This document shows positions 5,976 through 48,636 of a stretch of DNA of 64,000 nucleotides, in pieces (positions within the stretch are counted from its first letter, which is position 1; each line of letters starts with the position of its first letter). The notes beneath the pieces are model-generated. The model had not been told where the DNA came from, did not search any database, and saw only the letters and a program-made list of their open reading frames with translations. A program made the position numbers and the translations under genes. The stretch is from NCBI GenBank assembly GCA_030648615.1, contig JAUSHJ010000045.1, forward strand, positions 25,071 through 89,070, read 5' to 3'. This stretch comes from Candidatus Micrarchaeota archaeon. GTDB taxonomy: Archaea; Micrarchaeota; Micrarchaeia; Anstonellales; Bilamarchaeaceae.

Positions 5976-6711
5976 ACATTTTTTTCAATTCGTTTAAAGC
6001 ATTCTCACTATATATGGTTACCCTTCCACCAGCACAGCCAGGAGCCAAATGTTTTACTTTCAATTTAGAAGGTGAAACGGTTTCTACACCAGCAATATTT
6101 TTTGCTGCTTTCAAAACGTTTCCAGTGGCAACTACTAATGCACCTTTGCAACCATTGCTCTTGGAATTGATAACCATTGAATTTAAGTTAAGCAACTCGA
6201 AAACTTTTAATACGTCTTGAGTTTTCTTCAGTGATTCAAAAGAATTATCCATAACTAAAGGATAGGAGGCTAAGGAAAGTTTTTTGTATCTTGCATTTAC
6301 AACATCCTTCTGAGCTGTTGCAGCCAATGCACTCATTAATGCTTTCCTGTATTCTTTCTTATTAACTTCTTCTATTATTTTAGTTTCAGGTTTTGGAGGA
6401 TGTGCTCTTCTACCCTTAACAGCATGAGGAACTCGTTTTACTTTACCGAACTGTCCTTTTGGCTGGACTTCGTGAGGTAAGTGTGGAATACCTTTGTTCT
6501 TTATTGCACCGTACATTTCTTTTCTTCCACGGTATTTGGCACTAGTTTCCAAACCTGCAAATTTATAAGAACCCTTTGGCTGGTATTCTTTGCTTTCATC
6601 GCTAAGGACTGCTCGCTTTATCAAATCATCACGATAATGCCCTTCGAAAACTTCCGGCAAATCTATTTGTTTGAGCGCTTTTCCTTCAATCGAATATAAT
6701 GTTGTTTTCAT
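5968..6711 (-). CDS. rpl4: 50S ribosomal protein uL4
   Basis: 247 aa; position and composition typical of archaeal L4. Confidence 0.9.
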   Translation of the reverse strand: MKTTLYSIEGKALKQIDLPEVFEGHYRDDLIKRAVLSDESKEYQPKGSYKFAGLETSAKYRGRKEMYGAIKNKGIPHLPHEVQPKGQFGKVKRVPHAVKGRRAHPPKPETKIIEEVNKKEYRKALMSALAATAQKDVVNARYKKLSLASYPLVMDNSFESLKKTQDVLKVFELLNLNSMVINSKSNGCKGALVVATGNVLKAAKNIAGVETVSPSKLKVKHLAPGCAGGRVTIYSENALNELKKMFA

Positions 6712-6720
6712 ATGTTACAC

Positions 6721-7665
6721 CTATTGCTTTGAATCCAAAGAAGTATAGTTAAGCTGTGGCTCCTTGAATGCTGGAGAACGAACACCTAATCTTAATTTCA
6801 CAAGTCTCTTTGGTGGACCTGGCACTGAACCATGTACTATTATGTAATCATTTCTTACAAAACCATAGTGAGGAAAACCATCTTTTGGATTTATTTCTTC
6901 TACTTTCTCACTAATTTTCATAATTTGCTTATTCAACTCAGTTCTTTTATGATAACCAGTTTGACCAGCTTGTGGAACAGTGTAAAGTACGTAAGCAGGA
7001 TGCCACTGACCCAAAGTACCTACGTGTCTATATTTACCTGTTGCTTTTCTTCTTTGCTTGGCAATACCAAATCTTTTTACAGGACCTTGCCAGCCTTTAC
7101 CTTTTGTAATAGAAACAATATCTACGAATTCACCATGCTTGAAAACATCTTTTGCTCTTATTTCTTTGCCAGCCAATGTTTTTGCATATTCGATTTTTTC
7201 ATTGACATCTTTTCCACCAATACCAAGTTCCATTCTTTCAATGTGCTTCTTGCCTATCTTGGTTTTTGATGGCTGTACGAAAACTAGTAAACGAACATCA
7301 TTAACAGATTCTACTTTAACTTCCTTTTGCTGTAAAGGTTTTTTTATGTTGAGTAATTTTAATACAGTAGCATCTGCAGTTAAAACATCTGCAATTGAAT
7401 CCATGCCATCGTAGCATCGATAACCATATACTTGTATTGGTGGCACTTCAATTACCGTTGCTGCACCAGTTAGCTCCTGACCTTTTGTAGGAGATTCTCT
7501 GTGATCTATATATGAAATATGAGTCATTCCAACTTTATATCCTGCAAATCCTAGAACACGTTTTTGTTCTTCGTCCTTCCAGTAAACCCTAGGGTTCTGA
7601 CTAGCTGCCCTTTTTCTTGGACGGAATGCCATACTACCTCTGCGCGGTCTTCTTAAGTCTGTCAT
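6721..7665 (-). CDS. rpl3: 50S ribosomal protein uL3
   Basis: 314 aa; PRRGSMAFRPRKRA N-terminus and FGIAKQRRKATGKYRHVGTLGQWHP motif; first gene of the cluster. Confidence 0.95.
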   Translation of the reverse strand: MTDLRRPRRGSMAFRPRKRAASQNPRVYWKDEEQKRVLGFAGYKVGMTHISYIDHRESPTKGQELTGAATVIEVPPIQVYGYRCYDGMDSIADVLTADATVLKLLNIKKPLQQKEVKVESVNDVRLLVFVQPSKTKIGKKHIERMELGIGGKDVNEKIEYAKTLAGKEIRAKDVFKHGEFVDIVSITKGKGWQGPVKRFGIAKQRRKATGKYRHVGTLGQWHPAYVLYTVPQAGQTGYHKRTELNKQIMKISEKVEEINPKDGFPHYGFVRNDYIIVHGSVPGPPKRLVKLRLGVRSPAFKEPQLNYTSLDSKQ

Positions 7666-7694
7666 TGATAAAACACCTTATGTTTTTGAAATAT

Positions 7695-7775
7695 CCCAAT
7701 TGTTGCAATGCAACAATGGGCATCTTGTCGCTCAACGCGACAAGCTTGTTGTCCGTTAGGACAATTCATATGAAT
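7695..7775. repeat. hairpin-cluster repeat element, copy 1 (upstream of the ribosomal operon)
   Basis: cccaattgttgcaatgcaacaatgggcatcttgtcgctcaacgcgacaagcttgttgtccgttaggacaa: three consecutive TTGTYG/CRACAA stem-loops plus the AATGGGCATCTTG linker. Confidence 0.8.
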
Positions 7776-7946
7776 TACCTAAAACGTCTTGTGGTGGGTG
7801 TAAAAATGTTTAATTCTTAACACGCTACGAAGACTAAAACCTTTTTCTCTTGCATTGCCCTACATTGACAAATCGCTCTTAGCGACAGCCGAACAGGGTT
7901 GCCAAATTAAAAGTATAGAGTAAATATGAAAAGAAAGGTTTAAATA

Positions 7947-8555
7947 TCAACTGGTGTGTTTTCCAAAATCTTTTGTTTCTCCATTAGCAGGTTGAACTTC
8001 GAATAATTTTAACTTTTCTTCACTTAGAGAATCAACAGTAAGACGAGTTACTAGCTCAGTGTAAAAAAAATGCATACCTTTTTTTGCCCACGCATAAATA
8101 AGCATAATTGCAGTTGCAGCCATGACAGCAAATGCCCATTTTCTTGCAGGCTCACCTAAATCACGCGCATGATCAATTAAACGATTTATCAGAAATGCAA
8201 CCGGCGTAATCACTGACCAAAAAGTACCCACTAAAGTAATAGTTGCAATGCTTACTCTGGCATGCATATAAGCAATTTTTCTTGCTTCCATAACTGCAGT
8301 TTCATCTAGTTTTTTTGATTCTGAAACCATTGGTGTCGCAATGAGAGCACGATCTAATCTACGCATATGTAATACTTCATGAAATATATAAGAACCGGAT
8401 TTACCTATGCCGGCATCTTCTAAATGCAATTTGTCTCCTCTTAATGATTGTGCTTTCAACCGATCTAACTTAAAACGATTTATTCCACTTGGAAGCAGGT
8501 ATGCTCTTTCGAAAGGTTCTTTGAATACCATTTTTCGTTTTATATCGATTGCCAT
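7947..8555 (-). CDS. hypothetical membrane-anchored protein, family X member 1
   Basis: 202 aa; shares MVFKEPFE, HMRRLDRALIATP, ARKIAYMHAR and EPARKWAFAVMAATAIM with the 8616..9155 ORF; C-terminal transmembrane helices. Confidence 0.55.
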   Translation of the reverse strand: MAIDIKRKMVFKEPFERAYLLPSGINRFKLDRLKAQSLRGDKLHLEDAGIGKSGSYIFHEVLHMRRLDRALIATPMVSESKKLDETAVMEARKIAYMHARVSIATITLVGTFWSVITPVAFLINRLIDHARDLGEPARKWAFAVMAATAIMLIYAWAKKGMHFFYTELVTRLTVDSLSEEKLKLFEVQPANGETKDFGKHTS

Positions 8556-8615
8556 AAATTACGCGTCACCTGTTTTTCCTGAAGTTTGTTAAACATCGAA
8601 TAATTTTAACTTTTC

Positions 8616-9155
8616 TTAACTTAGAGACTTTCCAAGGAAAAAATCTATTAGCCAGTTAACATAGGATTGAAGAACATCTTGTCCACTTTTGAAACTAGTC
8701 ATAATTGCAGTTGCAACCATAACAGCAACTACCCATTTTCTTGCAGGCTCTATAAAAATCGCTATAGATGCTGCTACTTCACCCGCTAAAAGAGTTATAC
8801 CAACTGCATCAATAGATGCAATGAATAACCGAGCACGCATATATGCATTTTTTCTTTCTCCCATTATTTCTGCTTCCGTAAATTTTTTAAATTCACTGTC
8901 GATGGGAGTTGCAGTAAGCGCACGATCTAATTTACGCATATGACTTATTTCACTGCCAGTATAAACACTCAGACTTATCATAATAGTTGTATCTTCTAAA
9001 AGCAAATTATTTCTTGCCAGTACATTTGACCTTAATTTAGCTAAATTGACAAATTTATTAAGGACCGGAAGTACTTTTTCAAATGGTTCTTTAAATAGCA
9101 TTTTTCTATCTAGACCAAATAATTTTCTAGTTAAATCAGTTCCCATAAATAACAC
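8616..9155 (-). CDS. hypothetical membrane-anchored protein, family X member 2
   Basis: 179 aa; clear paralog of the 7947..8555 ORF (MLFKEPFEKV, HMRKLDRALTATP, ERKNAYMRAR, EPARKWVVAVMVATAIM). Confidence 0.55.
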   Translation of the reverse strand: MLFMGTDLTRKLFGLDRKMLFKEPFEKVLPVLNKFVNLAKLRSNVLARNNLLLEDTTIMISLSVYTGSEISHMRKLDRALTATPIDSEFKKFTEAEIMGERKNAYMRARLFIASIDAVGITLLAGEVAASIAIFIEPARKWVVAVMVATAIMTSFKSGQDVLQSYVNWLIDFFLGKSLS

Positions 9156-9191
9156 TAAATTATAATTAGTATAAAAAGGTTTTAAATAGTG

Positions 9192-9626
9192 TTATATCAC
9201 GCTTCTTCGTGTTTTCAAATGAATTGTCGCTTTGAACTTTTTTCTTAAAATTTCCTTTGCCGCCTTTATTCTCTCCCCTTCTTTACCTATTGCAATTCCC
9301 CTATCTTTCTCATCTATTGTAAGTACTATAGCCAAATCGCCCATAATATTCTGAACTTCCACAGATAAAATAGAAATATTATTGAACATACCTCTGACAA
9401 AAAGTTCAGGATCAGACATATCTCCAATTATAATTACTTTTCTCTTGAAGGCATCTCTCAATTTCTGCATATTACTGCCGTTTTTACCTATTGCTTTTCC
9501 TAGTTCAGCAACAGGGACAAGAAAAATAAGCAATGTAGCTGAAGGTTCATAATCAGATGGCATAACACGAGTTATGTTTTCAAAAACAGAAAACATATTT
9601 AAATCATCATTTGTAAGTTCAACCAT
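9192..9626 (-). CDS. nusA: transcription termination/antitermination factor NusA (archaeal, KH domains)
   Basis: 144 aa; two KH-like GKAIGKNGSNMQKL and IAIGKEGERIKAAKEIL motifs; position after L30e. Confidence 0.8.
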   Translation of the reverse strand: MVELTNDDLNMFSVFENITRVMPSDYEPSATLLIFLVPVAELGKAIGKNGSNMQKLRDAFKRKVIIIGDMSDPELFVRGMFNNISILSVEVQNIMGDLAIVLTIDEKDRGIAIGKEGERIKAAKEILRKKFKATIHLKTRRSVI

Positions 9627-9630
9627 AATT

Positions 9631-10224
9631 TTAACCTTTTACCTCTGTAGCTCCAGATTCTATTTTATTATTTCTATTAACATAATGTTCAAATGTTTTC
9701 CCTAAAAAAGTAACTAAACCGATGGTAATTCCACCAGCAATACCTTGAAATATCCAATGACGATGATATGTGGAAAACAATGCTGCTAAAACAGGAGCGC
9801 TAAGAATAGTTGCTACTGTAGCCTCGCATGAAATTGGAAACCATGTATTTACTCGTGATGAATGTGTGTATCCAATTTCCCTTACTTCGAATCGTTCTTG
9901 TTCCGTCAACGTTTTCTGTGGCCATTCAAATATTTCTGCTTTTATTGCATGCGCTTTAACACGCATTAATTTAGTCTCTTCAATTTTATATCTCGCAAAA
10001 ACAATTGGATGCGATAGTATTGCAAGTGTCCTGCCTTTTCTTGGATTAACATAAGTATAAGAAAAATCAGATACTTTTCCATTTCCCCTCGTATCTGGAT
10101 GAATTAAACCTTTCCCAGTATATTTTGAGACGTAAAAAGCAAATACTTTGTCAATCGCCGATTTGAAAAGAACAGCTTTACCTTGTACAACAACCATTTG
10201 TGTTAACCTTTTTTTACAATGCAA
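9631..10224 (-). CDS. hypothetical membrane-anchored protein, family X member 3 (divergent)
   Basis: 197 aa; N-terminal MVVVQGKAVLFKSAIDKVFAFYVSKYTGKG...LSHPIVFARYKIEE aligns with MVKIYGFSERVMFREVQDTVRASFKSTKGKS...LEHPVCAFRYARAE of the 15581..16183 ORF; C-terminal transmembrane region; inserted between L30e and NusA. Confidence 0.5.
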   Translation of the reverse strand: MHCKKRLTQMVVVQGKAVLFKSAIDKVFAFYVSKYTGKGLIHPDTRGNGKVSDFSYTYVNPRKGRTLAILSHPIVFARYKIEETKLMRVKAHAIKAEIFEWPQKTLTEQERFEVREIGYTHSSRVNTWFPISCEATVATILSAPVLAALFSTYHRHWIFQGIAGGITIGLVTFLGKTFEHYVNRNNKIESGATEVKG

Positions 10225-10226
10225 AA

Positions 10227-10661
10227 TTACTTTGCTTTCTTCTTTACAAGATCAAGAATGTTTGAACTTCCTTGTTCATAAATCGACAATATGCTAATTG
10301 GAAATGGTTTACCGCATATGGAACCGAGATCGATTGAACTACCTTCAAATTCAATTGTAGGTACCTCGCTCTTCAATGCCTTGAATTTTTCCATGACTCC
10401 TGAGACATTGCCAGCAACTACGAAAAGTTTTGCCTTGCCAACTGCAGCATTCTTGAGACCAATATTAGAACCAAATTCTACTTTTCCACTTTCAACTGCC
10501 AATCTGATTGCAGCACTTAGAGGATTTTCTTTTTCTTTCTTAGACTTTCTCCTTCGCACTACTTTCTTAGTTGGAGCATACTCGTCTTTTCCTGCTTCGA
10601 GTTCACTATCAGTTTCAGTACTTTCTTCTACGCCCATTTTTTCTTCTTTTTCGTCAACCAT
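10227..10661 (-). CDS. rpl30e: 50S ribosomal protein eL30 with charged N-terminal extension
   Basis: C-terminal 95 aa LSAAIRLAVESGKVEFGSNIGLKNAAVGKAKLFVVAGN is the L30e/L7Ae fold; conserved position after rpoA''. Confidence 0.8.
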   Translation of the reverse strand: MVDEKEEKMGVEESTETDSELEAGKDEYAPTKKVVRRRKSKKEKENPLSAAIRLAVESGKVEFGSNIGLKNAAVGKAKLFVVAGNVSGVMEKFKALKSEVPTIEFEGSSIDLGSICGKPFPISILSIYEQGSSNILDLVKKKAK

Positions 10662-10689: not shown

Positions 10690-11766
10690 TTACTTCTTTC
10701 CCTTTAGTATAAGCTTAATCTTACCAGTACCAACCGGAACGGTCTGACCAACTATAATATTTTCAGTTACACCGATAAGATTTTCATCTTCAGAGAACGC
10801 ACTTGCATTTATCAAATGCTTTATTGTTTCTTCGAAAGCTGCTCTTCCGAGTACACCGACTTTTTCTCCGCTTAAACCGTGTCTTCCAATTGATTTGACT
10901 TGACCAGAATAACATACTGCATCGGAAACAAGCATGATATGCCTAATGTCAACATAAAGTTTTTGCATGTCCATGACATCTTTTATTTCTTTTATGATTG
11001 CATTTCTAGCAGCTTCTATACCGAAAACTCGTTCGATTTCTTTTATGTTATTAGTATAGATTCTTTTCGGATCTACTGCTGGATTTTCCATGGCACCTAA
11101 AATATTACTTCCTGCAGCTCTTATAAAGTATTCACCGTCTCCTTTAAGTACCACTGCTCGTTCTATTCCAGGAACTCCTTTCACTATTCCGTTCTTAATT
11201 TTATTTCCGAGTCTGCGGACATTTTTAGCTGTGAACTCCAATGTCTCCTGTGGTTCGCCTTCCTTGGCAGTTTTTTTCTTCTCTTTTTTAGGAGAAATTA
11301 CTATTTTTTCTTCTCCTACTATTTTGAGATTAGCAGAAAAGTTTTCAAGAGCTTTCTTGAGTGCGTTGAAAGTAACACCTAAAGTTTTTCCATCTTTCTC
11401 ATTAAACGTAACAGTTATTGTCTTATCTGAAAGATCATCTTCTACTCTGGCGACATCTCTTACGAACACACTGGTTATTTCCAGCATTATTTTTCCAGCT
11501 TCTGCTTCACTTTTGTGAGCACTCTTGAGATAAATATCGATGACTGGTTTCTTTGGTTCTTTTTTTGAATCTACTATTTCAATTAATCTAGGAAGACCAG
11601 TTGGCACGTGCTCTGCTACACCTGCATAGTGGAATGTTCTCATTGTCATCTGTGTACCTGGTTCACCGATGCTTTGTGCTGCGATTACTCCAACTGCTTC
11701 GAACGCAGGAATAGATGCTTTCCTTAATTTTTCCATTTTGTCAGATTTATCAGATTTTTCTACCAT
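10690..11766 (-). CDS. rpoA2: DNA-directed RNA polymerase subunit A''
   Basis: 358 aa; [21 protein letters not shown] and C-terminal GQTVPVGTG motifs typical of A''. Confidence 0.9.
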
Positions 11767-11848
11767 ATAAAAATCACCATTTTTATATATTTGTCGGCAT
11801 TTTTTCTTGACGACAAATCATAAATTTTTCACCTTGTAAATATTATTT

Positions 11849-12247
11849 TCATCTTATAACCAACTGAGCTCGCATAGAAGCTAAATACTGATCACTTTGA
11901 ACTTCGGAACGATTTACAACATAGAATGCCTGTTTCACTTCTTGTGGCAAAGATCCGACTAATCCCAAGAAACGAGACTGTGCAGTTGTAACCGCAGCAA
12001 CAAACTGTGATACTTCAGTACGAGTTTTTCTACCCTTACCCATAGATACGATATCATGTCTCAAAGCATGAAGTTGCCCAATTCTAGAAGCTAGGACAGA
12101 ATCTTCCTCTCCAGTAGCATACTTCACTTTTTTCTGTCGATCTTTCAACACAATCTCTACTGCACCAACCTGATTTGTAAATCCACGAACGTATGCTCGA
12201 GCATGATCCGGTAAAGGTTTTCCTTTGATATTAGAATGTCTTGTCAT
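11849..12247 (-). CDS. small basic hypothetical protein (MTR-start ORF 3 of 3)
   Basis: 132 aa Arg/Lys-rich ORF; only long ORF on either strand in this interval; tandem with two similar-sized ORFs between rpoA' and rpoA''. Confidence 0.4.
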   Translation of the reverse strand: MTRHSNIKGKPLPDHARAYVRGFTNQVGAVEIVLKDRQKKVKYATGEEDSVLASRIGQLHALRHDIVSMGKGRKTRTEVSQFVAAVTTAQSRFLGLVGSLPQEVKQAFYVVNRSEVQSDQYLASMRAQLVIR

Positions 12248-12268
12248 TGTATCTCCATTTAAATATTA

Positions 12269-12526
12269 TTAGTATCGTTTAGTTGGCTTTGCAACAGGAC
12301 AGATTAATGGAATTGGATACTCTCCCATTGAACCTAGCATATAGCTGCCACCAACATCGTGATAAATCGTAGGTCTTCTTCTTACGTATAATGTTGCACT
12401 TGCACATAAAATACCCTCACGTTCTACCAACGGTTCTTTTCTATGAATTACTAACCTGCTACCTCGTTGAAGCGAATAATGTCCTCTGATATTTCTTTCT
12501 TCTCTTCTTGTGAGTGTTCTTGTCAT
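12269..12526 (-). CDS. small basic hypothetical protein (MTR-start ORF 2 of 3)
   Basis: 85 aa, starts MTRTLTRREERNIRG; 13-nt spacing from upstream ORF. Confidence 0.4.
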   Translation of the reverse strand: MTRTLTRREERNIRGHYSLQRGSRLVIHRKEPLVEREGILCASATLYVRRRPTIYHDVGGSYMLGSMGEYPIPLICPVAKPTKRY

Positions 12527-12539
12527 TATTATTCACCAG

Positions 12540-12815
12540 TTATACATCAATATTTCCTTTACTAGCTGTACGTATTTCTCTAGCCCTCGCTTCGTTCCTT
12601 TCATTGGATTCTGCTACGTCTCTATCGATTCTTCGAGCATATTCTTGAAAGAACTGAACACTTGCACGAGTGTCAGCAAGTTGTTTTTCTGATGATTTGA
12701 TTTCTGGAACTTCTACTTCCAAAGGTTTACTTTTGAACGGAGGCTTTGTTGTATCTACAACGCTACCCGTCCTTCCGCTTCTACGACGTTGTGTATCAGC
12801 TCTGAATCTTGTCAT
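12540..12815 (-). CDS. small basic hypothetical protein (MTR-start ORF 1 of 3)
   Basis: 91 aa, starts MTRFRADTQRRRSGRTG; sits 76 nt after the rpoA' stop. Confidence 0.4.
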   Translation of the reverse strand: MTRFRADTQRRRSGRTGSVVDTTKPPFKSKPLEVEVPEIKSSEKQLADTRASVQFFQEYARRIDRDVAESNERNEARAREIRTASKGNIDV

Positions 12816-12891
12816 TTTTTCACCATCAAATTAAATGCCTCGAGACCCAGAACCAAAATTCGGAACTGAAGACTCGAAACTCAAAACAGAA

Positions 12892-15558
<2,667 letters not shown>

Positions 15559-15580
15559 GTTTATTACCTCGTGAATATTA

Positions 15581-16183
15581 TTATCCTGATTGAGTTCCTG
15601 CACTTGATACTCCTCGTAAATGTTCTACGTTAGATAATATTGCTTCTGAAATATCAAATTGTACAGTCAATTTAGGATCGTAAGCTTTTCTTTCGCAACG
15701 TTGTCTTGCTACGTAACCCCATACCAAAGCAATTGCTACTCCAGCTGCAGAAGCCATGAACCGAAGATTGGAAAGACTAGGTCCGAGTGTCACGAAATGC
15801 GTAGCGATATCTGCAGCAAGAATAAGCGCAGTACCACCGGTTGCAATAATAGAACCTCGCAAGTCCCCCAGATGCTGCCATGCATTGGAATATGCATTCT
15901 TTCTAGCAGTTCTAACTATTACTTCACGCGATTCCACATTCGGAGAAGTCACCGGAGTCGCAACTTTAGCTTTAGCAATATCTCGCATGTATTTTCTTTC
16001 TGCCCTTGCATACCTAAATGCACAGACTGGATGCTCGAGCATTAGACTACGTTCGCCATCCAGATATTTTCTGCTGAAAACATCAAACGCTGATTTGCCT
16101 TTCGTAGATTTGAAACTAGCTCTAACTGTATCTTGCACTTCGCGGAACATCACACGTTCACTGAAACCGTATATTTTTACCAT
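15581..16183 (-). CDS. hypothetical membrane-anchored protein, family X member 4
   Basis: 200 aa; paralog of 7947/8616/9631 ORFs (VMFREVQDTVRASF, YMRDIAKAKVATPVTSP, ARKNAYSNA); lies between rpoB' and rpoA'. Confidence 0.5.
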   Translation of the reverse strand: MVKIYGFSERVMFREVQDTVRASFKSTKGKSAFDVFSRKYLDGERSLMLEHPVCAFRYARAERKYMRDIAKAKVATPVTSPNVESREVIVRTARKNAYSNAWQHLGDLRGSIIATGGTALILAADIATHFVTLGPSLSNLRFMASAAGVAIALVWGYVARQRCERKAYDPKLTVQFDISEAILSNVEHLRGVSSAGTQSG

Positions 16184-16258
16184 GATTTTTCAACCTTCTA
16201 CCAGAGTTCTACCATCTAGCATCTACCCTCTACCCGTAGTTCTAGCTTCTAGCAATAA

Positions 16259-18103
16259 CTATCCTTTATCCCTCATCAATAATCTTGGGAATATATACAA
16301 TGATTTTATTTCATCAAGCAACAACTTGAATGCGTAACTCATTTCAACTGCATGAACATTTTCACTTTCACAAACAGGACAAACATCCTTGTTTCTTGCG
16401 TAATCATGAGTTGCAACTCCACCACATTCGTTACAAACGAGTTGTACAGTCTTGTCGCTTTCTTCAAGCAGTCTTTCCCTGATTAACATACTTGCGCCGT
16501 AACCAAGTAAACAATCACGTTCCATTTCCCCGAATCTGAGACCACCTTCTCTTGCGCGGCCTTCAGTTGGCTGATGAGTAAGTAATTGCACTGGACCTCT
16601 CGATCTTACGTGCATCTTATTGCTTGCCAAGTGATGCAATCTCTGATAGAAAACTACACCAATGAATATTTTTGCTTTTATCTGCATACCAGTAATACCA
16701 TCATATAATATTTCTTCTCCGTGTTCTTCGAAACCGTTTTTCTTTAATATGTCACGATATTCTTCTTCACGATTACCACTGAACGCAGTTCCGTTCATCA
16801 ATTTACCTACTATACTTCCTGCTTTTCCACCTAGGGTTTCAAGCAAGTGACCACATGTCATTCTGCTTGGTATTGCGTGAGGGTTAACTATCAAATCTGG
16901 CACGATACCTTGAGCAGTAAATGGTAAATCTTCCGGTTGTGCTAAAAGACCGAGTACACCTTTCTGTCCATGTCTTGATGCAAACTTATCTCCTACCTCA
17001 GGAATTTTTATCACTCTTAGTCTGACCTTAACCAATCGGTTTCCGCTTGGACCTTCTGTGATAAGAACTGAGTCGACTTTTCCTGTTTCTCCAGGTTTCA
17101 GTGCTAGTGAGCTTTCTCTTTTTTTCTCTTCAACTGAACCAAAAACAGATATTTCTTCAAGGAATCTTGGAGGTGAGGTTTTACCAACTAAAACTTCTTT
17201 TCCAAATACTTCGCTTTCTGGTAAAATTATACCATCTTCAGATAAATGTTTGTAAATCTCTTCACCACGATAGCCAGCTACTTCTGGAGTTGGTGCTTCT
17301 ATTTTATCTTTCTGACCACCAGGATAAATTCTTTCTTCTGTTTCGTATGTTTTGAGCATTGCAGTTCTGAATAAACCCCTATCAATGGCAGCACGATTAA
17401 CGACAATAGCATCTGCCATGTTGTAACCGTGATAACTAGTTAATGCAACTACACAGTTTTGACCTGCAGCTTTATTTTTAAGTTTCAAAGCGTCATACAT
17501 CTTGGTTTTTACAAGAGGTTGCTGTGGACCGTAGAGAATATATGCTCTCGTATCAAATCTAAGATTGAAATTAGATGCATATGTACCAAGACTTTGCTTA
17601 GCCATTGCGCAAGCCATGGTAATTCTCGGTGAAGAGTTATATTCTGGGTAAGGAAGAACTGATGCAACTACACCAAATATTGTTGAGGCATCGATTTCCA
17701 AATGAGTATGCTCTGGGGAAATGCTCTCTGGCTTCAGTGCCACGTAGGCATTCTCTTCCTCTTGAGCATCCAGGAATTCTATAACTCCCATTTTTATCAA
17801 ATGATGCCAATTGATTGTATTATTTTTTAATTTCTCAAGCATTTCTGAAGTAAGTCTTGCCTTTCCAGCTTCCACTACGATATAAGGTCTGCGTACTCTA
17901 CCTTTATCAGTAGTTATATGTAATTCATCAGCTTTTTCAGTATAGTAAACGTTAACCTGGTGATTGAGTTCGTTGGTTCTTCTTTTTTCTCTCAAACGAT
18001 TTGCAAGATCTCTACCATTAGCGTGAGTACCGACTAATTTCCCATTAAGATAAATTGAAGTTCGTGCATCTGCAGATCTCACTCTTCTTTTCCTTTTTGC
18101 CAT
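16259..18103 (-). CDS. rpoB1: DNA-directed RNA polymerase subunit B' (C-terminal half of split RpoB)
   Basis: 614 aa; C-terminal Zn motif CNECGGV...CPVCESE; GQKGV and NPHAIPSRMT motifs. Confidence 0.95.
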   Translation of the reverse strand: MAKRKRRVRSADARTSIYLNGKLVGTHANGRDLANRLREKRRTNELNHQVNVYYTEKADELHITTDKGRVRRPYIVVEAGKARLTSEMLEKLKNNTINWHHLIKMGVIEFLDAQEEENAYVALKPESISPEHTHLEIDASTIFGVVASVLPYPEYNSSPRITMACAMAKQSLGTYASNFNLRFDTRAYILYGPQQPLVKTKMYDALKLKNKAAGQNCVVALTSYHGYNMADAIVVNRAAIDRGLFRTAMLKTYETEERIYPGGQKDKIEAPTPEVAGYRGEEIYKHLSEDGIILPESEVFGKEVLVGKTSPPRFLEEISVFGSVEEKKRESSLALKPGETGKVDSVLITEGPSGNRLVKVRLRVIKIPEVGDKFASRHGQKGVLGLLAQPEDLPFTAQGIVPDLIVNPHAIPSRMTCGHLLETLGGKAGSIVGKLMNGTAFSGNREEEYRDILKKNGFEEHGEEILYDGITGMQIKAKIFIGVVFYQRLHHLASNKMHVRSRGPVQLLTHQPTEGRAREGGLRFGEMERDCLLGYGASMLIRERLLEESDKTVQLVCNECGGVATHDYARNKDVCPVCESENVHAVEMSYAFKLLLDEIKSLYIFPRLLMRDKG

Positions 18104-18112
18104 AAAATGAAC

Positions 18113-18175
18113 ACCTCAAACTTTGTTTGAGGACCGACAAATCGAAGTTTCGATTTGTGGTCCACAAAATGCCAC
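18113..18175. repeat. hairpin-cluster element, copy 7 (short; between the rpoB halves)
   Basis: cctcaaactttgtttgagg, caaatcgaagtttcgatttg and gtggtccac: three adjacent perfect inverted repeats. Confidence 0.6.
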
Positions 18176-18235
18176 TAGCATTTTGTAGGATTTTTGAACA
18201 ACAGTTCAATCAATCCTCATTAATGAATATTATTT

Positions 18236-18550
18236 TTATTCTAGTTTACTTCGACGCCTACTGTAAGTTATAGCAACCGGAACACGTCCAGAGCCTGGAT
18301 GAGTAATACCATCACGTACACTATGAGTTGGACCGACTACAATTCCTCCACGAATGAGACTAGTTTCTCTAGCCCGAACAAATGGATGTCCACCACCATC
18401 ACCAAATGCAGAAGCTTCTGCAAGTGGATTTTCAACCAAACCTCTTCGATTACGAACATCTGCCCTGACACCGGCATGTCTTCTGCTGGTATTGACTGGC
18501 TCTGCAGCTTGTCTTTGAATTGATCGATCTTGAGTTTTTTGTCTTGACAT
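18236..18550 (-). CDS. small Arg/Gly-rich hypothetical protein inserted between rpoB'' and rpoB'
   Basis: 104 aa from ATG 18550, 5 nt after the rpoB'' stop (the listed ORF 18236..18559 begins with a GTG codon overlapping the rpoB'' stop by 4 nt); sequence MSRQKTQDRSIQRQ...GGGHPFVRARETSLIRGGIVVGP; higher GC than surroundings. Confidence 0.4.
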   Translation of the reverse strand: MSRQKTQDRSIQRQAAEPVNTSRRHAGVRADVRNRRGLVENPLAEASAFGDGGGHPFVRARETSLIRGGIVVGPTHSVRDGITHPGSGRVPVAITYSRRRSKLE

Positions 18551-18555
18551 GAAAA

Positions 18556-20004
18556 TCACTTGACGTCAAACGCTTTGAGCAATTTATGAATTTCCTCATC
18601 ATCAATACCTGTGGAAACTTCTGCCATAACTGCAATGTTCTTTACAAGAGAACAACTTGGACCTTCTGGAGTTTCGTTCGGACATAATTTACCAAGATGA
18701 GTACCATGGAGATCTCTTGCTTTGAAGTGTGGATGCTTCTTGCTCAGTGGAGAAATAACTCTCCTCAAATGCGAAATAGTTGAAAGATAACTGACACGAT
18801 CAAGTAATTGTGAAACACCAGTTTGACCTGCAATCCAGTTACCGGTTGCCATTGCATATCTTATTCTGTCTGCCATAGCATCCTGTCTAACTAAAGTATG
18901 TACTTGCAATCTTCTTCCACGAGCATCTGCTCTTGAAGCCTGATAAACTAAATCTTTGATCAAGAATTGGAATGCATATCTAAACAACTCTTCCATCATT
19001 TCTCCGGCTAATTTCACTCGCTTATTTGCATAGTGATCTTTGTCATCAGGAGCAATTTCTTTATATGAAACTCGGGTTGCTTTTTCTGCCATCTTTATTA
19101 AAAATTTAGCTTTTTCAATTCTGTCAGCTTTTGTTACACCAACGTGAGGCAAAAGATAATTATCGATTAGGCTTTCCATCCTGTTTAATCGGAATTCTGC
19201 AGGCTGGCCTGGAGAAAGTTTTCTGCTAAGTAGATCGACTGCATCTTCTCTGACTTTACTCTCTTCTGTTTCCGTATTGAGTATCACATCGTTCTGTATG
19301 TGCTTCTGCTGAGAGAATGCTTTTGATATCTCGCTATTACTTTCGAAAGCTAAAACTCTCAAAAGTTGAAGTAATGGTATTCCTGCTGGAGCTGATGGGA
19401 ATTCTACGCTGAATGCACCATCTGCATTTCTTTCAACCACACATCTTGCTCTAAATCCATAATGAGTTGAAAATATTTTTGCCACGATACCAGATTTTTC
19501 TGTGGTTACCATCAGTTTGTTTGGTACCAAATCTTCTATGCTAACCAATACACGTTCACTTCCATTGATGATAAAATATCCACCCGGATCGTCTGGATCT
19601 TCGCCATTTTGAATAAGTTCGCTTTCACTTAAATTAGATAAATAACATAATTTTGATTTTACCATTACTGGAATTTCACCAATAAAAACATCACTGTAGG
19701 TTGGTCGTTCAACACCGTTGAAAATTGGAATTATTTCAAGAAAAACAGGTGAAGCGTAGGTAAGATTTCTTAATCGTGCTTCAGTTGGATGGATCTGCAT
19801 GTAACCACCTTTTACTTCGTAATATCGTGGCTGCTCTATCCTAACTTTTCCAAGCTTAAGTTCAAAACCTTCTACGTTAGTTTGTATTTTTCCTATATGA
19901 GTAACAACATCCTGTATCCCCTTATCAACAAATTTATTGTAGGATTCGAATTGTTGTTTTACTAAAGTATTTGCTCGATAATATGCTTCAATTAATCCAT
20001 CCAT
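18556..20004 (-). CDS. rpoB2: DNA-directed RNA polymerase subunit B'' (N-terminal half of split RpoB)
   Basis: 482 aa; rifampicin-pocket and fork-loop region motifs (GYFIINGSERV, ANKRV). Confidence 0.95.
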   Translation of the reverse strand: MDGLIEAYYRANTLVKQQFESYNKFVDKGIQDVVTHIGKIQTNVEGFELKLGKVRIEQPRYYEVKGGYMQIHPTEARLRNLTYASPVFLEIIPIFNGVERPTYSDVFIGEIPVMVKSKLCYLSNLSESELIQNGEDPDDPGGYFIINGSERVLVSIEDLVPNKLMVTTEKSGIVAKIFSTHYGFRARCVVERNADGAFSVEFPSAPAGIPLLQLLRVLAFESNSEISKAFSQQKHIQNDVILNTETEESKVREDAVDLLSRKLSPGQPAEFRLNRMESLIDNYLLPHVGVTKADRIEKAKFLIKMAEKATRVSYKEIAPDDKDHYANKRVKLAGEMMEELFRYAFQFLIKDLVYQASRADARGRRLQVHTLVRQDAMADRIRYAMATGNWIAGQTGVSQLLDRVSYLSTISHLRRVISPLSKKHPHFKARDLHGTHLGKLCPNETPEGPSCSLVKNIAVMAEVSTGIDDEEIHKLLKAFDVK

Positions 20005-20047: not shown

Positions 20048-20380
20048 TTAACCATCTATGACTAACTTATAACAGGTAGATTTGCCAGTAAGATCACTAC
20101 GATTTATTTCTACTACGTCATCTACGCTTGCCTTTAGAGCTACCATTGAACTATCAGAAACAAGTAACCTAGGAAGCTGCCATTTAGTTATATTATATTT
20201 CTTAAGAACTCGATTTTTTTCTTCTGTGGACAGAATCTTCATTTCTGGCACGAGTACATGCGAGAGAACGTCTATACCTTCGGTTTTTACTTTCTTTCTC
20301 TTAACCAACGAACCACCTATAGAATAGATATACAAACAGGCGATATGACTAGTAAACTGCAAAAAACAGAGTTCCAGCAA
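20048..20380 (-). CDS. rpoH: DNA-directed RNA polymerase subunit H (Rpb5 homolog); start uncertain
   Basis: C-terminal 75 aa HVLVPEMKILSTEEKNRVLKKYNITKWQLPRLL...YKLVIDG is canonical RpoH; the listed ORF has a ~35-aa hydrophobic N-terminal extension that may not be translated. Confidence 0.7.
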   Translation of the reverse strand: MLELCFLQFTSHIACLYIYSIGGSLVKRKKVKTEGIDVLSHVLVPEMKILSTEEKNRVLKKYNITKWQLPRLLVSDSSMVALKASVDDVVEINRSDLTGKSTCYKLVIDG

Positions 20381-48537: not shown

Positions 48538-48552
48538 CTTTGATGTCAAATA

Positions 48553-48636
48553 TCCCAATTGTCGTTTGACGACAATGGGCATCTTGTTGCTTCAAGCAAC
48601 AAGCTTGTGTCAGCATTTTTCTGCCCTGCTGACAAT
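48553..48636. repeat. hairpin-cluster element, copy 6 (inside the membrane-protein array)
   Basis: cccaattgtcgtttgacgacaa, then tgggcatcttgttgcttcaagcaacaa, then ttgtgtcagcatttttctgccctgctgacaa. Confidence 0.85.

Follow-up and report, generated by a model that had tools for sequence, protein, structure and literature searches.

Three probable orphan genes between rpoA' and rpoA'' in the RNA polymerase operon of a Micrarchaeota sublineage

We describe here an insertion at the junction of rpoA' and rpoA'', the genes encoding the A' and A'' subunits of RNA polymerase (RNAP), in Candidatus Micrarchaeota archaeon (assembly GCA_030648615.1, contig JAUSHJ010000045.1, positions 25,071 to 89,070; this whole stretch of 64,000 nucleotides is referred to as the window). 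The two genes are 1,125 nt apart, and the gap is occupied by three co-oriented open reading frames (ORFs), designated ORF1, ORF2 and ORF3. An earlier inspection of this DNA by its letters alone (hereafter, the sequence-only reading) had noted three ORFs of 91, 85 and 132 aa, starting with MTR and lying 13 and 21 nt apart, and this description was exactly confirmed. Judging from their sequence, ORF1-3 are very probably real genes. The explanation towards which we lean, with modest confidence, is that they are fast-evolving, lineage-specific orphan genes which were captured in a variable spacer and are expressed by read-through from the RNAP operon. Within this explanation we infer that the ORFs are co-transcribed with the operon, that their products bind nucleic acids and that their role is that of passengers.

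Coding capacity of the insert

When the 1,125-nt spacer was shuffled 20,000 times, three same-strand ORFs of 85 aa or more arose with a probability of about 5e-5, and an ORF of 132 aa or more with a probability of 0.004. We also scored codon usage by log-likelihood, with 33 long genes of the window as the training set of the model. The in-frame scores of ORF1, ORF2 and ORF3 were 0.254, 0.181 and 0.218, respectively, as compared with 0.234 +/- 0.073 for 90-codon chunks of real genes and an off-frame maximum of 0.155 (660 chunks), and all five alternative frames of each ORF scored negatively (those of ORF1 at -0.05 or lower). The GC content of the three ORFs is 0.39-0.41 versus 0.37-0.39 in the rpo genes, so that the earlier claim of a composition like that of the neighbouring core genes holds, and GC content at third codon positions (GC3) is depressed to 0.23-0.25 versus 0.25-0.28 in rpo and core genes. 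The opposite strand indeed bears no long ORF, its longest being of 60 aa. A Shine-Dalgarno (SD) sequence, GGTGA or GGAGA, is located 5-8 nt upstream of each of the three starts, similarly to L2, L3, rpoB' and rpoA''. No terminator-like site was found within the insert, nor any excess of promoter-like sites, although the promoter scan was of a bacterial type and could miss an archaeal TATA/BRE promoter. Rfam gave no match in the window at the gathering score, nor at E <= 1 in 11600-13000, and no tRNA was found.

For ORF3, comparative evidence is available as well. A word-index search of 5.8 billion proteins retrieved only ORF1, ORF2 and ORF3 themselves, and a phmmer search over 1.84 billion cluster representatives yielded one genuine relative of ORF3, namely P0003, a protein of 147 aa (E 6e-13) which starts with MTRQSTSKAKPLPEY and is 36% identical to ORF3 across its full length. 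A 4,827-aa repeat protein that also appeared as a candidate homolog was rejected as spurious, its score being the sum of 49 weak stretches. P0003 is encoded on a JGI contig of 1,067 nt (L082), immediately 5' of an rpoA'' gene whose product is 81% identical to that of the window. Since the homolog lies directly 5' of rpoA'', we consider ORF3 a real gene conserved in position. The motifs MTR, KPLP, GA-EIVLK and GRKT are kept between the two proteins, and the proportion of nonsynonymous differences (pN 0.40) is well below that of synonymous ones (pS 0.72), which indicates purifying selection on ORF3 in the sister lineage. At the same time, the nonsynonymous distance (dN) is 0.56 for ORF3 as compared with 0.107 for the adjacent RpoA'', an approximately 5-fold faster change.

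It is thus very improbable, in our opinion, that the insert is a non-coding spacer with accidental open frames or a set of decayed pseudogene fragments. Such a view would fit with the lack of homologs of ORF1 and ORF2 anywhere searched. It is opposed by the result of shuffling, by an in-frame codon signal exceeding every off-frame control, by a GC3 lowered as in real genes, by the SD ahead of each ORF and by a pN far under pS in the ORF3 homolog, as well as by AlphaFold2 (AF2) models which reach a pLDDT of 72-75 from just one or two sequences. The suggestion that the ORFs are probably expressed together with RNAP is likewise supported by codon usage, by the SD sites, by the terminator-free insert and by the apparent purifying selection on the ORF3 homolog.

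The left junction of the insert is borne out by an independently assembled Logan contig which is 100% identical to window positions 11793-13727 but may share a sequencing run with the metagenome-assembled genome, and the right junction is backed by the related JGI contig. We also observed that two Logan contigs, L001 and L163, break exactly within the hairpin at 11789-11818, with a 29-nt overlap (window 11793-11821). This break was probably caused by the palindrome, the alternative being a population variant at that point.

The rpoA'/rpoA'' junction in related lineages

We sampled the rpoA'' neighbourhoods of 80 species-representative genomes (RpoA'' 50-73% identical) and of 80 metagenome contigs. 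In 72 of the 77 related species with both genes, the raw alignment gap between A' and A'' was below 100 nt, and the median distance extrapolated to full gene lengths was -13 nt, which bears out the assumption of the sequence-only reading that the two genes are normally neighbours. The extrapolated distance exceeded 300 nt in only two of the 77, one of which (L047) has an in-frame, intein-like insertion within rpoA'', while the other (L030, 2880-3200) has at the junction an unrelated 105-aa ORF with a basic N-terminus and a coiled coil. The latter case suggests that the A'/A'' site repeatedly acquires small ORFs. A likeness of ORF1 to this coiled-coil ORF was considered and rejected (z = 1.0). 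As a separate observation, insertions of about 1.1-1.5 kb, intein-like in look only, are located inside rpoA'' near GEPGTQMT in L046 (6786-8951) and L047 (about 6520-8936), and that of L046 is in frame, within a single open frame of 2,166 nt. Our survey of the literature brought up no description of insertions in the RNAP operons of DPANN archaea or Micrarchaeota.

Searches of 162 related loci with tblastn, phmmer and hmmsearch revealed no homolog of ORF1-3 apart from that on the P0003 contig. When metagenomes were scanned with the RpoA'' N-terminus, no relative exceeded 70% identity and no insert came up, and a scan with the ORF3 alignment was likewise empty. Conservation across related genomes, proposed in the sequence-only reading as a check, was thus not observed, as there is no homolog of any of the three ORFs in the 77 species and ORF3 alone has one, in a metagenomic contig. 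The lack of homologs in these loci indicates that the trio is a recent, lineage-restricted addition rather than a clade-wide component.

What does occur in relatives is the spacer. Two of them from groundwater, L029 and L027, have spacers of 170-220 nt at the A'/A'' junction without ORF1-3. The L029 spacer aligns with the 76-nt leader of the window through the SD and the ATGACA start, and after this start it contains only a mini-ORF of 5 codons, a hairpin, a AAATATAAAAAT box and an SD, followed by rpoA''. The layout of L027 is the same, with a leader that aligns poorly and a mini-ORF starting with ATGGCA. In L082 the leader is followed directly by the ORF3 homolog and then by rpoA''. The 39 nt located 5' of P0003 align best with the rpoA' leader of the window (z = 7.1), as compared with z = 2.2 for the ORF2 leader, and it is therefore less likely that they represent the 3' end of an ORF1-like gene. 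On the strength of this leader alignment, the ORF3-like gene in L082 appears to follow rpoA' directly, and ORF1 and ORF2 appear to be absent from it. Taken at the level of sequence comparison, these layouts indicate that a variable spacer at the A'/A'' junction predates ORF1-3 in this sublineage.

Properties of the products and a possible accessory role

The products are strongly basic, as had been claimed, with isoelectric points (pI) of 10.1, 10.3 and 10.3 and with 14, 13 and 12 Arg residues for ORF1, ORF2 and ORF3, respectively. By eye, ORF1 consists of an Arg-rich N-terminal tail, a Pro/Lys linker and a C-terminal segment resembling a long amphipathic helix. The AF2 model of ORF2, built from a single sequence, predicts an N-terminal helix and six beta strands (pLDDT 72, pTM 0.57), and that of ORF3, from a two-sequence alignment, a bundle of four to five helices (pLDDT 75, pTM 0.65) in which short strands at residues 10-11 and 73-74 join KPLP and GRKT, its two most conserved motifs. 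Nucleic-acid binding would be the likely activity of these proteins, to judge from their charge and a conserved basic patch. The three proteins are not paralogs of one another: once the shared start is removed, z is at most 0.5 in protein Smith-Waterman comparisons and at most 0.6 for the DNA cassettes.

Searches against known families gave little. Nothing significant was found in Pfam, NCBIfam, PHROGs or PADLOC for ORF1-3, the ORF3 homolog or the other inserted ORFs of the operon (an orphan between rpoB'' and rpoB' and four paralogs of 180-200 aa, described below). The sole match to phage or virus families was that of ORF1 to an Rz-like spanin of PHROGs (E 0.003), over a low-complexity helical stretch. 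The best matches in a sequence search of the PDB were mS29/L6 at E 0.2-1.2, which is not significant, with one match at E 3.4 for ORF1 and none for ORF2. Foldseek found no match to the ORF2 and ORF3 models at E <= 0.001 in the PDB or BFVD, and the ORF2 model has no fold match.

The sequence-only reading had proposed that the ORFs could be accessory subunits, or stand-ins for missing components of RNAP or the ribosome, and had suggested comparing them with the respective profiles. None of the RNAP-subunit profiles (Rpo13, Rpo8/G, RpoH, K, L, N, P and others) or ribosomal-protein profiles of Pfam and NCBIfam matched ORF1-3, even at E <= 1, while the same Pfam scan identified RpoH, B'', B', A' and A'' on either side of the insert. 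Together with the lack of homologs in the 162 related loci, with the apparent absence of ORF1 and ORF2 from the lone relative bearing ORF3 and with the fast change of ORF3 relative to RpoA'', this leaves the view of ORF1-3 as parts of RNAP or the ribosome not supported. Replacement of core machinery, in particular, is not supported, because such a component should be conserved at least clade-wide.

A weaker version, in which RNAP or the ribosome has gained the products as lineage-specific regulators or accessory subunits, we consider quite unlikely. They might, for example, be Arg-rich-motif RNA binders acting on the hairpins that flank the SDs of rpoA'' and rpoB', and thereby tune subunit stoichiometry or antitermination. 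On one hand, their location within the RNAP operon implies that the genes are co-expressed with it, the proteins have Arg-rich, strongly basic N-termini, and hairpins lie beside or over the SDs of downstream RNAP genes (for rpoB', z = -7). The best of the fold neighbours of ORF3, weak as they all are, are moreover basic four-helix-bundle nucleic-acid binders of the 23S intervening sequence (IVS)/Avd family (TM 0.47-0.52). On the other hand, no profile of an RNAP subunit, transcription factor or ribosomal protein matches, the ORFs are absent from 77 related species with otherwise the same RNAP, L027 and L029 have the rpoA''-proximal hairpin and mini-ORF without them, and the fold matches are not significant (E >= 0.3).

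The fold neighbours of ORF3 in question are 2rld, 2gsc and 8ub7_B (TM 0.46-0.52, probability 0.38-0.66, Foldseek E 0.6-1.8, not significant), and an Avd-like BFVD entry gave TM 0.46 at E 1.5. ORF3 resembles the family of 23S rRNA IVS proteins and Avd of diversity-generating retroelements (PF05635) in its length of about 130 aa, its very basic character and its predicted helical bundle, and IVS proteins too are located in insertions within core information-processing genes. However, the neighbours of ORF3 are ORF2 and rpoA'' rather than a reverse transcriptase or rRNA, and PF05635 is absent from the Pfam matches of ORF3 and P0003 at E <= 1. Helical bundles match promiscuously in fold searches, and at such E values and with no profile match this likeness is only a lead. 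A second resemblance, to arginine-rich-motif antiterminators of the lambda N type, was noticed by eye: these too are very basic proteins of about 90-105 aa with T/R-rich N-terminal stretches (here TRTLTRREERNIRG and TQRRRSGR) and with RNA hairpins nearby in the same transcript. The similarity has, however, no statistical backing, relatives that lack the ORFs have the hairpins too, and no N/boxB analogue is known for this archaeal system.

The hairpins deserve a description of their own. Between ORF3 and rpoA'' there are two of them (Table 1), with a folding z of -2.1. The layout that precedes rpoA'' is common to three lineages (window 11765-11821; L029 7925-8000; L027 2985-3085) and consists of an SD-led mini-ORF of 12, 5 or 25 codons running across a hairpin, then of a AAATATAAAAAT box and the rpoA'' SD; the sequence of the hairpin differs among them while its pairing is retained. 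Such a layout may constitute a translational-coupling or attenuation device. Its presence in L027 and L029 without ORF1-3 means that the rpoA''-proximal hairpin is independent of the ORFs. The arm ATTTGTCG was considered as a repeated element and rejected (5 copies found versus 2.1 expected, a number equalled in 8 of 100 shuffles). The 141 nt before rpoB' have a minimum free energy of -49.7 kcal/mol versus -24.8 in shuffled sequences (z = -7.0) and no Rfam match. Hairpin clusters are not specific to the inserts, since other intergenic regions of the window have them too. Among side observations of this kind, the 281-nt M202-L3 spacer is highly structured throughout (z = -5.0). A palindromic element of 37 nt, AAGATGCCCATTGTYG..CRACAATTGGGATATT, occurs in near-identical copies 5' of L3 (7690-7726) and, 41 kb away, at the 5' end of an unrelated ORF (48549-48585), both copies opening a short MPIV...QLGY reading frame. 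The spacer between rpoB' and the downstream insert (16193-16254) contains TGGTAGA heptamer repeats (period 7, 3.9 copies) nested in repeats of period 33 (1.9 copies).

Other insertions, the shared start and the origin of the genes

The transcription gene cluster of the window is canonical for archaea, all its genes being located on the minus strand (Table 1), and L3, L4, L23 and L2 come after nusA. The rpoA'/rpoA'' junction is not the only one that is widened. The rpoB''/rpoB' gap is 452 nt (median in 64 relatives, 21 nt), the rpoB'/rpoA' gap 655 nt (median -41 nt) and the L30e/nusA gap 600 nt (median 9 nt); none of the relatives in which these three medians were determined (64-75) exceeds 300 nt. 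The ORF between rpoB'' and rpoB' encodes an Arg-rich orphan with 17 Arg, a GC3 of 0.167, a codon score of 0.262 and a pI of 11.7 (the last computed on a 107-aa version from GTG 18559), for which no family or homolog was found in our searches either. The remaining inserted ORFs form a family of four basic proteins of 180-200 aa with hydrophobic C-terminal halves, located at three junctions of the RNAP/ribosomal-protein cluster. The closest pair is 41% identical and the others 20-28%, and the family has no homolog in the 162 related loci, Pfam, PHROGs, PADLOC, PDB or IMG/VR. The eight inserted ORFs all run in the direction of the operon. We also observed that it is the L3-L4-L23-L2 operon, and not S12-S7-EF2, that comes after nusA in this clade (window 7666-9191; L027 5335-6051; L032 10329-11150), and that the lineage-specific gene located between nusA and L3 differs among the genomes examined.

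Table 1. Features of the RNAP gene cluster and its insertions, in window coordinates
Feature	Position	Strand	Remarks
rpoH	20048-20380	minus	Pfam
rpoB''	18556-20004	minus	Pfam
104-aa Arg-rich orphan ORF	18236-18550	minus	between rpoB'' and rpoB'; MSRQKTQDRS..., start ATGTCAAGA
structured spacer	18104-18235	minus	four near-perfect consecutive hairpins, the last pairing the rpoB' SD
rpoB'	16259-18103	minus	Pfam
200-aa orphan ORF	15581-16183	minus	between rpoB' and rpoA'; hydrophobic C-terminal part
rpoA' (RNAP subunit A'/Rpo1N)	12892-15603	minus	Pfam Rpb1 domains 1-4 and domain 5 positions 1-66, E 1e-88 to 1e-23; true start probably ATGACAGAC at 15558
leader, rpoA' stop to ORF1	12816-12891	minus	76 nt, T-rich; ends with SD GGTGA, 5 nt and ATG
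ORF1 (Q7S22_05475)	12540-12815	minus	91 aa, MTRFRADTQRRR...
ORF1/ORF2 spacer	12527-12539	minus	13 nt; holds ORF2 SD GGTGA
ORF2 (Q7S22_05470)	12269-12526	minus	85 aa, MTRTLTRREERN...
ORF2/ORF3 spacer	12248-12268	minus	21 nt, AATATTTAAATGGAGATACA; holds ORF3 SD GGAGA
ORF3 (Q7S22_05465)	11849-12247	minus	132 aa, MTRHSNIKGKPL...
ORF3/rpoA'' spacer	11767-11848	minus	82 nt: SD, mini-ORF, hairpins, A/T box
mini-ORF	11821-11783	minus	12 codons, SD-led; in ORF3/rpoA'' spacer
hairpin ATTTGTCG-N-CGACAAAT	11789-11818	minus	in ORF3/rpoA'' spacer
10-bp A/U hairpin	11765-11788	minus	rpoA'' SD GGUG in loop
rpoA'' (RNAP subunit A''/Rpo1C)	10690-11766	minus	Pfam Rpb1 domain 5 positions 68-264, E 2e-46
L30e	10227-10661	minus	Pfam
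paralog of 200-aa ORF	9631-10197	minus	between L30e and nusA
nusA (KH-domain NusA)	9192-9626	minus	Pfam
two further paralogs, 41% identical	8616-9146 and 7947-8555	minus	between nusA and L3

ORF1-3 share more than their location, as their starts consist of an identical 9-mer, ATGACAAGA (encoding MTR), which is kept in P0003 in spite of an overall identity of 36%. Six copies of it are present in the window versus 0.91 expected, three of them being the starts of ORF1-3, and the start of the rpoB''/rpoB' insert, ATGTCAAGA, is one base off. Beyond these nine bases the three ORFs show no similarity at either the protein or the DNA level. The 9-mer was considered as a dedicated recombination core, but this idea is weakened by native genes: rpoA' and L3 start with ATGACAGAC, so that ATGACA starts are found there as well, and a AATATTTA-N-GGTGA-N-ATG module also constitutes the native A''-L30e junction. 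A preferred context for translation start is thus an adequate, if incomplete, explanation of the sharing of ATGACAAGA.

A mobile or selfish origin of the genes we regard as unlikely. In this scenario ORF1-3 and the other operon inserts would either stem from a virus or plasmid not yet sampled or make up an array of exchangeable cassettes, promoter-less coding bodies being swapped in and out through recombination at the SD-ATGACAAGA repeats. They could function in genetic conflict (defence, anti-defence, addiction), which would account for the fast evolution. In its favour, the same 9-mer is found at three starts and in the homolog, with the near-identical one at the rpoB''/rpoB' insert, and ORF1 together with ORF2 amounts, relative to L082, to an indel of 568 nt bounded by direct repeats of ATGACAAGA. 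A single paralog family occupies three different junctions, the proteins are orphans among billions of database entries, as genes of mobile elements typically are, and the dN of ORF3 is 5-fold that of RpoA''. Several results argue otherwise. No integrase, transposase or homing-endonuclease domain is present in any inserted ORF (the scan covered the inserted ORFs and not the remaining operon or window), and specifically no GIY-YIG, HNH or LAGLIDADG domain was matched in ORF1-3 by Pfam at E <= 1. In a repeat search of 11600-13100, the sole repeats detected were short direct ones at the leaders and starts; inverted repeats, whether attC-like or terminal, do not surround the cassettes. There were no matches in IMG/VR, INPHARED, PHROGs, BFVD or PADLOC: scans of viral contigs (IMG/VR, INPHARED) gave no loci, tblastn no phage match and BFVD no significant fold. 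Neither PADLOC nor Pfam matched a toxin, antitoxin or defence profile to any of the three proteins, all of which are basic. Finally, codon usage and GC content are fully host-like, and the start module is present at native genes, as described above.

Two known kinds of system resemble such an arrangement in part. Similarly to integron gene-cassette arrays, the insert is a tandem of promoter-less, co-oriented, unrelated small ORFs under an upstream promoter, with a short repeat at each cassette boundary and with presence/absence variation among relatives. In contrast to integrons, no integrase was found in the inserted ORFs and no attC-type imperfect inverted repeats were found, it is the SD with the start codon that is repeated, there are only three cassettes, and the flanking genes are rpoA' and rpoA''. 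Free-standing homing endonuclease genes located between conserved genes (for instance T4 seg/mob) and rpoA'' inteins are likewise selfish-looking insertions at highly conserved housekeeping loci, but ORF1-3 are intergenic rather than in-frame and no endonuclease signature was found in them. A more speculative idea, to which we assign little probability, is that the RNAP operon of this sublineage serves as a landing pad at which promoter-less orphan ORFs are captured, stacked and lost behind AATATTTA-GGTGA-N5-8-ATGACAAGA. This would be a start-codon-anchored cassette array without an integrase, carried by the operon that the cell expresses most reliably, and hairpins gating the translation of RNAP subunits further downstream might be the targets of the captured Arg-rich proteins.

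The explanation we favour is the simpler one of orphan passengers captured in a variable spacer. In one Micrarchaeota sublineage, ORF1-3 would have lodged in the spacer separating rpoA' from rpoA'' and, having no detectable promoter or terminator of their own, would be transcribed by read-through in an rpoH-B''-B'-A'-A''-L30e-nusA operon. Each would be translated from its own SD site, and the tightly spaced cistrons, followed by the mini-ORF and hairpin, would hand ribosomes on to rpoA''. They would be accessory passengers, one of four such insertions in the operon, whose gain and loss took place immediately after an invariant translation-start module, SD-ATGACA(AGA), and which are tolerated because they are co-oriented and leave operon expression uninterrupted. 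Small, fast-evolving, family-less genes confined to one or two close lineages are known as orphan (ORFan) genes in conserved operons, and ORF1-3 resemble these also in a host-like composition and in a dependence on the host operon for expression. They differ from usual ORFans in that their site splits the halves of the largest RNAP subunit at a junction which is tight in 72 of 77 relatives, in that four junctions of one core operon are filled, and in that three unrelated genes have an identical 9-nt start.

Some observations weigh against this explanation. The identity of the first nine nucleotides of three unrelated genes, kept in a homolog, is left unexplained by it. A/T-rich, TATA-like boxes are present in the spacers. 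As neither ORF1 nor ORF2 has a homolog, their coding status is a statistical matter, and the evidence on relatives bearing ORF3 comes down to one contig of 1,067 nt, in which just 39 nt precede P0003, so that the absence of ORF1 and ORF2 from L082 is read from a short alignment. Basic charge, in turn, is weak evidence of nucleic-acid binding.

Few known gene arrangements are as rigid as the rpoB-rpoA'-rpoA'' block of archaea, in which the junctions are tight and often overlap, a feature believed to favour co-translation of the subunits in stoichiometric amounts. The novelty of our finding is modest and consists in family-less orphan genes at an unusual, and unusually repeated, location; what stands out is the four-junction pattern and the unexplained identical start rather than any demonstrated function. 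For annotation, it is a warning that position in an operon is not evidence of function, as ORF1-3 are probably not RNAP subunits. Whether the start module that they share contributes to the capture of ORFs is a further question posed by this locus. The orphan genes at four junctions suggest that this operon can tolerate foreign or new cistrons, which can persist under purifying selection, and the locus may represent a natural case in which to study how new genes of DPANN archaea, with their reduced genomes, come to be expressed by hitch-hiking on essential operons.

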